NCBI GenBank assembly: GCA_044868005.1
Contig: JBIOVX010000013.1
Span: 2,172 to 66,171, forward strand
Source: Thermoanaerobaculia bacterium
GTDB lineage: Bacteria > Acidobacteriota > Thermoanaerobaculia > Multivoradales > UBA5704
DNA length: 64,000 nt
Direction of reading: 5' to 3'
Shown here: positions 23,814-24,809 of the stretch, piece by piece
How positions within the stretch are numbered: position 1 is the stretch's first letter
Layout: every line of letters begins with the position of its first letter
Notes under the pieces: model-generated
What the model was told of the DNA's origin: nothing
Database searches by the model: none
The model's input: the letters and a program-made list of their open reading frames with translations, nothing else
Translations under genes and position numbers: made by a program

Positions 23814-24809
23814 ATGACTCATGACCCCGCCGGCATGCTCAAAGAGCTTCTCGACCATAGGCGAACCGCCCGCGCCCTGGTGCTGAAGGCGGCAGACCTG
23901 CACGGGTCGGATCTGGCGGGATTGCGTGCCGACGGCCTCGATCTCGAAGAGGCCGATCTGCGGGAGAGCTCCCTGACGGAGGCGAAGTGGAGAGGCTGCG
24001 TCCTGCGCGATGCGCGCCTCGACGGCGCGGATTTCACCGACGCCGTCCTCAGGATGTGCGATCTCGATCAGGCGCGCGCGAGCAACGCGAAATTCGTGCG
24101 CACCCGTCTCGAGAACAGCACCGCGCGCGGGGCTCGATTCGACGGCGCCGACCTGACAGGGGCCGTGTTGACGGATACGGATTTCTCCCGCGCCAGCCTG
24201 TGCGGTGCGATCCTGGAGGGCGTTTCGGCGTCGGGCGCGGATTTCCGCGGTGCCGATCTGCGCGGCGCCAAGCTTCGGGACGCGGTGCTCGTCGATTCCG
24301 ACCTGCGCGGCGCGGACCTCACCGATGCCGATCTCGCCGGAGCGGACCTGCGCGGCGCGGATCTCCGTGGTGCCATGGGCGGCCCCGCGGCGCTGCCGCA
24401 AGAGGAGGCCGAACCGACGGCCGCGTTGCCCGCCGAGCTGAAGGCGCTCACGGGAACCATGGCTCCCATCGTGCTCGAAGTGCTGCGCACGGCAGGGCGG
24501 CGGGGCGTCATCGATCCCGAGACGGCCCGGAGGCTGATGGCGGAGGCCGCCGCCTTGCAGCGGAAGGCCTCGCCCGGAAACGCGCCGAGCGCAGAGACGA
24601 TGAATGCCGTGTCGCGGGTGCTGGACGAGCTCGGCGATAATGTGCTTCCGGGCCTGATCGGCGCTCTCCGGCAGCCGAACGAGGACGAGCCGTCCCCCGA
24701 GGTCAAGGCCATGATCCTACGGCTGCGCGAGGAGCTCTCGCTGGATGAAACAGCCACCGCGGAAGACGTTCTCCTGCGGCTCATGAACCCCGAAGAGCGA
24801 ACGAATTGA
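23814..24809 (+). CDS. Pentapeptide-repeat protein with helical C-terminal tail
   Basis: The ORF starts 3 nt after the previous stop. About 170 aa are A(D/N)LxG-type pentapeptides (ADLRESSLTEAKWRGCVLRDARLDGADFTDAVL...ADLRGAKLRDAVLVDSDLRGADLTDADLAGADLRGADLRGA). Confidence 0.85.
   Translation: MTHDPAGMLKELLDHRRTARALVLKAADLHGSDLAGLRADGLDLEEADLRESSLTEAKWRGCVLRDARLDGADFTDAVLRMCDLDQARASNAKFVRTRLENSTARGARFDGADLTGAVLTDTDFSRASLCGAILEGVSASGADFRGADLRGAKLRDAVLVDSDLRGADLTDADLAGADLRGADLRGAMGGPAALPQEEAEPTAALPAELKALTGTMAPIVLEVLRTAGRRGVIDPETARRLMAEAAALQRKASPGNAPSAETMNAVSRVLDELGDNVLPGLIGALRQPNEDEPSPEVKAMILRLREELSLDETATAEDVLLRLMNPEERTN

Follow-up and report, generated by a model that had tools for sequence, protein, structure and literature searches.

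What is a pentapeptide-repeat protein doing between a very large toxin and a set of transferases in a contractile injection locus? The question is raised by a stretch of 64,000 nucleotides from Thermoanaerobaculia bacterium (assembly GCA_044868005.1, contig JBIOVX010000013.1, positions 2,172 to 66,171 of the forward strand; hereafter the window), in which the protein (hereafter PRP) is encoded two genes downstream of a giant, DUF4157-headed extracellular contractile injection system (eCIS) toxin. A preliminary description, made from the sequence of the window, proposed that PRP serves the upstream toxin, either as a DNA-mimic decoy that protects against a nuclease warhead or as a chaperone that keeps this warhead inert before loading, or else that it belongs to the downstream glycosyltransferases. 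We show herein that PRP and the giant are neighbours, occur or are missing together, co-diverge and move jointly between phyla, even far from the structural genes of the injector. PRP is therefore very probably a partner dedicated to the giant's constant region, while its mechanism, which we propose by analogy to be that of a chaperone or adaptor of this giant cargo, is a matter on which we are evenly divided. The features on which the argument turns are as follows.

Window gene order: Tail_P2_I baseplate gene, helix-hairpin-helix gene, outer-membrane-barrel gene, AAA+ ATPase gene, giant, 132-aa open reading frame (ORF), PRP gene, two transferase genes, divergent TetR gene.
17560-23415, + strand: giant eCIS_core/DUF4157 protein of 1951 amino acids (aa) (Pfam).
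17560..22089, + strand: constant region of the giant, residues 1 to about 1510 (homologue comparison).
22090..23810, + strand: variable cassette of low GC content, comprising the polymorphic C-terminal warhead of the giant and the small ORF (homologue comparison, GC content).
23412-23810, + strand: small ORF of 132 aa with a weak DUF4240 match (Pfam).
23814..24809, + strand: PRP gene, 331 aa (Pfam, homologues, AlphaFold2).

The association holds from whichever side it is approached. All 12 of the loci that were found through PRP and had enough flanking sequence adjoin a homologue of the giant, and on each of the eight PRP contigs with Pfam-annotated neighbours, drawn from eight lineages, a giant eCIS_core gene (1,660-1,990 aa) is followed by one or two small unannotated ORFs and then by PRP. 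A search for the giant protein in one genome per species recovered 24 loci, and in all of them a PRP-family gene is encoded on the same strand as the giant; the end of a contig truncates one PRP copy, and a frameshift divides another. In 22 of these loci, 1.5-3 kb separate the conserved body of the giant from PRP, which is downstream of it; in the other two, both from Myxococcota, PRP comes immediately upstream of the giant. Neither the giant nor the C-terminal domain of PRP was found in any of 75 control loci (1.19 Mb) around generic pentapeptide genes, the controls being unrelated pentapeptide-repeat proteins returned by a full-alignment scan on the generic DLRGADL pattern. In two loci a reading frame is broken, either because the copy is decaying or through indels in the assembly: a metagenome-assembled genome (MAG) of Cellvibrionaceae has PRP in two frames (L040:15777-16720), and a MAG of Woeseiaceae has the giant in several (L041:11447-13098).

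Presence and absence follow the same pattern. The genome samples are draws, and absence is stated for the genomes searched. Among 121 Myxococcaceae genomes, for which 18 PRP candidates were scored per genome, the PRP family occurs in four, and the body of the giant occurs in the same four, on the same contigs and a few kb apart. The Pvc16_N marker of the injector is found in 31 of these genomes and DUF4157 in 34, from which it follows that PRP is neither a general part of eCIS nor a general partner of DUF4157 proteins; a general pairing of DUF4157 with this PRP family was rejected on these counts. When 40 relatives of the window's genome were searched, 24 of them from the same genus, neither PRP nor the giant turned up, and the window's genome itself has a single PRP copy. 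By its CtaD protein, which is 73-78% identical to proteins from Vicinamibacteria (Acidobacteriota), the host would probably fall in that group.

The pair also occurs away from any injector. Orphan operons in the order PRP, giant lie amid housekeeping genes in Nannocystaceae ST9 and in a Myxococcales MAG (L042:8960-15973 and L049:10001-17005), the neighbours being genes for molybdopterin oxidoreductase/hydrolase and for ATP synthase and SpoIID. Nannocystaceae ST9 has four Pvc16_N genes, the nearest of which is more than 1.6 Mb from the PRP-giant pair. The giant toxin may be used without an adjacent injector, or may be supplied in trans. In Myxococcus xanthus DK1622, on the other side, MXAN_4488 (a DUF4157 protein of about 1,696 aa) is followed by MXAN_4489/4490, by MXAN_4491 (Pentapeptide) and then by afp16 and the sheath gene; in the related strain AM003 (L039) the profile hidden Markov model (HMM) of the family matched over positions 1-323. 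Geller et al. (2021) list the operon of MXAN_4491 in a supplementary table of operons but do not discuss it. The gene after PRP at several loci (L003:11036-14986, L005:11268-12134, L020:9419-11008) encodes a second DUF4157 protein, shorter (288-1,316 aa) and in one case with an OmpA domain, and there DUF4157 cargo genes stand on both sides of PRP.

Trees of PRP and of the giant's body, each built from 25 loci, are strongly correlated (Mantel r=0.86, a value reached by 0/5000 permutations) and have 11 of 22 splits in common, against 0.2 expected under label permutation. Both conflict with organismal taxonomy, in that Lentisphaeria fall inside a Cellvibrionaceae-type group and Chloroflexia fall beside Nitrosomonas or Desulfosarcina. 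PRP and the giant have therefore moved horizontally as a unit. One record stands out in both trees: in L035, titled Comamonas sp. KCTC 72670, both the giant and PRP cluster closely with those of Myxococcus xanthus and Myxococcus sp. Y35, and the name of this record is probably not that of the organism from which the contig came.

The PRP gene itself is an open frame of 331 codons without an internal stop (23814-24809, + strand). Its product matches the Pfam family Pentapeptide (PF00805; E=2.1e-40, 136.3 bits against a gathering cut-off of 20.2), and also Pentapeptide_3 and Pentapeptide_4. The repeats form 33 consecutive pentads in one five-residue register from residue 22 to about 186 (about 165 aa); under a strict [ACSTV]-x-[LFMIV] test for inward-pointing residues, 27 of 36 rows conform in this register and 0-1 in each of the other four. 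The protein is acidic (isoelectric point 4.7; net charge of the beta-helix -8) and has no signal peptide and no transmembrane (TM) segment, its maximum KD19 hydropathy being 1.18. The full-length homologues described below, 40-78% identical and spread over many phyla, establish that PRP is a genuine gene and no chance ORF. Its parts, and the putative ribosome-binding site, are listed here; the structural model is from AlphaFold2 with 39 homologues, and the C-terminal domain was remodelled alone with 21.

23802..23807, + strand: GAGGAG, a Shine-Dalgarno-like box 6 nt 5' of the ATG and within the end of the small ORF (direct sequence reading).
23826..23855, + strand: predicted N-terminal capping helix, residues 5-14 (AlphaFold2).
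23865..24383, + strand: predicted right-handed quadrilateral beta-helix of about 8 coils, residues 18-190 (AlphaFold2, predicted local distance difference test (pLDDT) about 98).
24384..24431, + strand: predicted disordered acidic linker, residues 191-206 (AlphaFold2, alignment).
24432..24806, + strand: family-specific C-terminal domain, residues 207-331, predicted to be helical over 207-329 (AlphaFold2, profile searches).

Foldseek relates the modelled beta-helix to the solved structures of HetL, Np275/276, QnrB1 and MfpA with a probability of 1.00. Conserved within it are the stacked Cys62/Cys82, W59, E100-N101 and R126; among homologues the linker is weakly conserved and varies in length. 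The C-terminal domain (about 125 residues) gave 6-7 helices at a mean pLDDT of 83 when modelled alone and carries the motifs TMxPIVxEVL, LPxLxxAL and EPPPEV..I.RL. Pfam returned nothing for it that was reproducible across 21 members, a profile search of the PDB returned designed helical-repeat proteins only (E ~1e-6), Foldseek with the pLDDT-83 model found no PDB fold better than E=3.7, and PHROGs gave no match. The domain is accordingly an orphan, probably of ARM/HEAT-like helical character. The architecture in the preliminary description, a 331-aa protein with some 170 aa of unbroken pentapeptides and a helical tail, is thus confirmed by the Pfam match, the 33-pentad register and AlphaFold2, and its assignment of the fold as a pentapeptide beta-helix agrees with AlphaFold2 and Foldseek.

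Two junctions of the gene were also described previously. The gap of 3 nt upstream is correct: the small ORF ends with TGA at 23808-23810 and the ATG of PRP is at 23814, so that translational coupling from the small ORF to PRP is plausible. The two ORFs share a frame in the window, with only TGA-CTC (23808-23813) between them. The overlap reported downstream, between the stop of PRP and the start of the next gene, is conditional. It exists, as TTGA, if the next gene starts at TTG 24806; if it starts at the in-frame GTG at 24848, a gap of 38 nt separates the two. Relatives of the downstream protein align from its residues 16-20 onward only, and on the sequence both starts are equally possible. 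A consensus scan for plus-strand terminators found none between 17000 and 29500, which is weak evidence for co-transcription.

Among 5.8 billion proteins searched, over 100 full-length relatives of PRP came up (at least 90% query coverage, about 40-78% identity), from sources that include Chloroflexia, Nitrospira, Mastigocoleus, Pseudoduganella, Myxococcota, Verrucomicrobiota and many metagenomes. The phyla represented are Chloroflexota, Cyanobacteriota, Nitrospirota, Pseudomonadota, Desulfobacterota, Myxococcota, Acidobacteriota and Verrucomicrobiota/Lentisphaeria, and in the alignments conservation covers both the beta-helix and the C-terminal domain. A profile of the C-terminal domain, run against 1.84 billion cluster representatives, matched 47 clusters at E≤1e-10, essentially all of which are proteins of 320-345 aa that carry the domain at about residues 205-325, or pieces of these. 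As one architecture accounts for essentially all 47 clusters, the family is small, specialised and fixed in its architecture. We propose it, on sequence comparison, as a new family, in which a pentapeptide beta-helix of about 170 residues is joined through a linker to a helical domain of about 120 residues and which would be the partner of giant DUF4157/TM toxins. The PRP of the window has both this architecture, with its motifs, and an adjoining constant body of the giant. PADLOC gave no match for PRP or the small ORF, and a reading of PRP as part of a defence system was dropped on this result; carriage on plasmids was likewise dropped, as a tblastn search of PLSDB gave no plasmid match at E≤1e-20.

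What PRP might be a partner of is defined by the layout of the giant. Its constant region consists of a Cys-rich N-terminal domain, an HExxH zincin domain, a long helical body (residues 580-1125), and a TM module (1126-1275) with a TM helix and Gly/Ala-rich hydrophobic segments, and every giant examined has one strong TM helix followed by such segments. Since all giants carry this TM/Gly-rich module, they offer no contrast set for whether the need for PRP depends on it. From the N-terminus to residue ~1510 the giants are conserved at 35-70% identity, and beyond this point they diverge. Their tails differ from locus to locus and include PT-HINT, Ntox1 (RNase-like), an SsdA-like deaminase, tails that end, like that of the window, in a helix-turn-helix (HTH), and unknown domains. 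The small ORFs between the giant and PRP likewise belong to at least five unrelated families. The GC content of the window is 0.50-0.60 only within about 22100-23800 and returns to 0.65-0.75 in the PRP gene. From these comparisons the PRP gene appears to be the conserved 3' flank of a swappable warhead/immunity cassette. An immunity gene co-varies with its toxin domain; PRP does not, and retains 40-78% identity across differing warheads. In a Nitrosomonas MAG (L024:14598-16094, P0058) and a related metagenomic protein (P0022), the small ORF and PRP form one continuous ORF of 487-498 aa, which is the kind of fusion expected if both act in one compartment on one partner. At the N-terminus of the window's giant (17560-18100, residues ~60-165), 4-5 tandem units of (E)PVQ(Q/H/S)KCAACEA(E/K)E occur, and these CxxC repeats occupy the place of the disordered loading sequence of AlgoCIS cargo.

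Known systems offer several comparisons. Qnr and MfpA, which shield DNA gyrase or topoisomerase IV, are compact proteins of ~180-220 aa, with a short C-terminal dimerisation helix as the only extra, and the helix of Qnr is interrupted by loops. PRP resembles Qnr, MfpA, AlbG and McbG in its acidic, right-handed quadrilateral beta-helix, to which both Foldseek and HMM matches point. It is, however, about 110 residues longer, has a separate helical domain, lacks Qnr-type loops, keeps its register uninterrupted, and resides in an injector cargo operon without topoisomerase or mfpB-type neighbours. Its scores against NCBIfam models are far below the cut-offs for Qnr (43.4 vs 240 bits), MfpA (52.2 vs 360 bits) and the QnrA/B/C/D/S/VC models (30-43 vs 425-500 bits), and it also falls far short of those for HetL (90 vs 260 bits) and PipB (56 vs 274 bits).

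A closer setting is found in type VI secretion systems (T6SS). TagAB/TagB of Burkholderia T6SS-5 and the DUF2169-pentapeptide adaptors are accessory, non-effector proteins needed for secretion or assembly, and have been proposed to chaperone spike/effector components (PMC13584744, PMC6335564, PMC7714669). Like them, PRP is a pentapeptide protein in a contractile-injection locus beside spike/effector genes. Unlike them, it has no DUF2169 (Pfam, E<=0.01) and has an orphan C-terminal domain of its own; no relationship in sequence was found apart from the generic repeats, and it stands beside an eCIS AAA+ ATPase and a DUF4157 giant (in Myxococcus, afp16 and the sheath gene) rather than VgrG, PAAR or PIPY. 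Eag/DUF1795 and Tap/DUF4123 of the T6SS are small, conserved, non-secreted proteins tied to large polymorphic effectors, and some T6SS chaperones or adaptors handle the TM segments of effectors (PMC12881460, PMC7714669). For PRP we propose a functional analogy to Eag and Tap, from which it differs in fold and in secretion machine and to which it has no homology. The partner class is defined by Cgo1 and Cgo2 of AlgoCIS, demonstrated by experiment as cargo of the tube lumen, in which a disordered N-terminal domain is followed by DUF4157 and a variable C-terminal domain, and which is loaded through the disordered N-terminus by the AAA+ ATPase Alg15 (PMC8894135; preprint 10.64898/2026.05.27.728243). 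No accessory PRP has been reported for AlgoCIS, and the giant differs from Cgo1 and Cgo2 in an extra conserved body of ~1,000 residues with TM segments that has not been described for them. The supplementary data of Geller et al. (2021) score the Pfam family Pentapeptide as a "shell" domain with weak enrichment (odds ratio 2.9, q 0.013, 14 genes, 6 phyla).

We read PRP as the cytoplasmic constant partner of giant (1,600-2,000 aa), DUF4157-headed, TM-bearing polymorphic cargo toxins of eCIS. We infer that it binds the conserved body of the giant in the producer cell, where it would keep a membrane-active protein of ~200 kDa soluble, inactive and loadable, and would present it to the AAA+ loader, while the small variable ORF would neutralise the exchangeable warhead. 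More tentatively, and with somewhat less than an even chance in our estimate, the PRP family may be the first class of cargo-specific chaperones or adaptors of eCIS, in which the beta-helix and the orphan domain hold the giant for the AAA+ loader. In a bolder variant, the acidic DNA-like rod would travel with the toxin through the lumen of a tube derived from a DNA conduit and be co-injected.

Several points weigh against the proposal that PRP is a chaperone or adaptor of the giant. PRP and the segments of the giant are all acidic or near neutral, and no charge complementarity is evident. Loading in AlgoCIS/PROCIS needs only a disordered N-terminus and an AAA+ ATPase, and no chaperone has been described (10.64898/2026.05.27.728243). 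Gene order is mixed, the toxin preceding PRP in 22 loci and following it in two, and cannot tell a chaperone from an immunity-like role. Finally, simple co-inheritance in one operon would equally yield co-occurrence and co-divergence, and co-divergence is thus no proof of protein contact.

The downstream genes, to which the preliminary description alternatively assigned PRP, vary between loci.

24806..28545, + strand: optional transferase module, consisting of a multi-domain glycosyltransferase (GT) of 981 aa (start TTG 24806 or GTG 24848) and a GT92/GT2-like gene at ~27748-28545.

Transferases follow PRP in about 10 of 26 related loci (about 40%), and their types vary by locus (GT1, GT2, GT8, FkbM methyltransferase, pyruvyl transferase). 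Elsewhere the gene after PRP is one for a second DUF4157 protein, a convergent unrelated gene or the giant itself (L026, L042); in Myxococcus, afp16 and sheath genes come next, and in L021/L030, L022, L032, L044 and L045 PRP closes the operon. The transferases are best described, from these gene orders, as a recurrent optional module of this injector lineage and not as the partner of PRP.

Two proteins of the module recur. Directly after PRP in five loci (L001:11017-11910, L023:16721-17638, L024:16098-16922, L027:17313-18086, L031:16906-17778), and followed by varied glycosyl- and methyltransferases, is a protein of ~257-305 aa that belongs to no Pfam family and is 46-63% identical between phyla; it may be an adaptor of the optional glycan module that has yet to be described. 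Among the loci with transferases, a conserved protein of ~290 aa often stands ahead of them. The N-terminal head of ~250 residues of the 981-aa transferase (24806-25630, residues ~16-273) is 48-57% identical to the heads of proteins of 881-1,748 aa encoded downstream of PRP (L031:18061-20706, L033:17772-22871, L036:6314-10903), in which the catalytic modules differ (GT1/capsule synthesis, GT8 with pyruvyl transferase). The head of these transferases thus seems, from sequence, to be constant and their catalytic modules swappable.

Five other accounts of PRP were weighed against its being a partner that handles the giant. An unlikely one, though the co-occurrence data fit it equally well, is that PRP is an inhibitor of the constant region, that is, a general immunity protein that neutralises, in the producer, either the zincin of DUF4157 or the TM/glycine-rich module that inserts into membranes. 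The position of PRP downstream of the toxin in 22 of 24 loci is the usual place of immunity genes, PRP is fused to an immunity-like ORF in one lineage, protection of the producer via DUF4157 was speculated upon by Geller et al. (PMC8213781), and full-length Cgo1 of AlgoCIS is toxic in E. coli irrespective of its HExxH motifs (PMC8894135). Membrane-active toxins are, however, usually met by membrane immunity proteins, while PRP is soluble (maximum KD19 hydropathy 1.18), and PRP precedes the giant in the two orphan loci. Moreover, the other DUF4157 proteins, which occur in 34 of 121 Myxococcaceae genomes and many of which exceed 1,000 aa, do without this PRP family, which means that the zincin domain per se does not need PRP. 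That PRP is instead an effector or cofactor, packaged and injected with the giant and acting in the target as a DNA-shaped mimic on a conserved nucleic-acid enzyme or as a partner that the giant needs for its activity, is in our view distinctly improbable. Pentapeptide domains do occur in injected effectors elsewhere (PipB, PipB2 and NleL are weak NCBIfam/PDB matches), PRP is acidic like DNA mimics, and its gene is at the cargo end of the operon. Yet DUF4157 is absent from it, and so, with a beta-helix predicted from residue 18 onward, is a disordered N-terminal loading region; its scores are far under the Qnr and MfpA cut-offs; and strict pairing with one cargo family, the immunity-like fusion and very high conservation across hosts of unrelated habitats favour a role on the producer side. 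Only a small chance is left to a structural or assembly part of the particle in this eCIS lineage, such as a plug, a cap adaptor or a fibre-associated protein. The Myxococcus gene has the giant on one side and the afp16/Pvc16 cap and sheath genes on the other, and pentapeptide segments exist in a core protein of the type IV secretion system (DotG was matched by sequence), but the orphan PRP-giant loci are far from structural genes and PRP is absent from 27 of the 31 Pvc16_N-positive Myxococcaceae genomes.

The two remaining accounts are those of the preliminary description. Its view that PRP serves the upstream toxin stands as regards the toxin, on the evidence of synteny, and falls as regards the nuclease/HTH warhead, since warhead classes vary while PRP is constant. 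For the same reason a second, warhead-specific immunity factor, in which PRP would be a DNA-mimic decoy against a nuclease tip, is very unlikely. The acidic beta-helix and the position 3 nt after a small immunity-like ORF would suit such a decoy, but the family accompanies at least four unrelated warhead classes, each with its own unrelated small ORF, the PRP gene is outside the exchanged low-GC cassette, and PRP is outside the Qnr and MfpA families. The decoy was accordingly abandoned. The chaperone that was suggested beside it survives as a general handling of the toxin before loading, with the constant body as the target in place of the HTH/nuclease. Membership of PRP in the glycosyltransferase module, to which we assign a minimal probability, could draw on the possible TTGA overlap with the 981-aa transferase gene and on the ~10 of 26 loci where transferases follow. 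It is contradicted by loci where PRP ends the operon or is followed by a DUF4157 protein, by afp16/sheath or by the giant, and by the variety of transferase types among loci; the giant accompanies PRP in every case, the transferases only in some. Conserved synteny with transferases in genomes lacking any toxin had been named as a pattern that would refute a role with the toxin, and the opposite was found, PRP being always beside a giant toxin.

No paper was found in the literature searched that ties pentapeptide proteins to eCIS, and the portion of a polymorphic-toxin survey that could be consulted does not mention them. Nor was any paper found there on MXAN_4491, the sole trace being in the supplementary tables that accompany Geller et al. 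(2021). Pentapeptide accessories of the T6SS are already known; what is new here is the domain, the partner and the machine of a pentapeptide accessory of contractile injection. The selection, safe-keeping and loading of eCIS cargo have been described as poorly understood (10.64898/2026.05.27.728243), and eCIS are being engineered as protein-delivery devices. PRP is a concrete candidate for a cargo-handling factor, genetically locked to a widespread family of very large, TM-bearing polymorphic toxins, and the orthologue MXAN_4491 beside MXAN_4488 in M. xanthus DK1622 makes the hypothesis directly testable. For annotation, a pentapeptide protein adjacent to a toxin should not automatically be taken for a DNA-mimic immunity factor. 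Pentapeptide accessories recur, on these findings, in two branches of contractile injection, the T6SS and eCIS.

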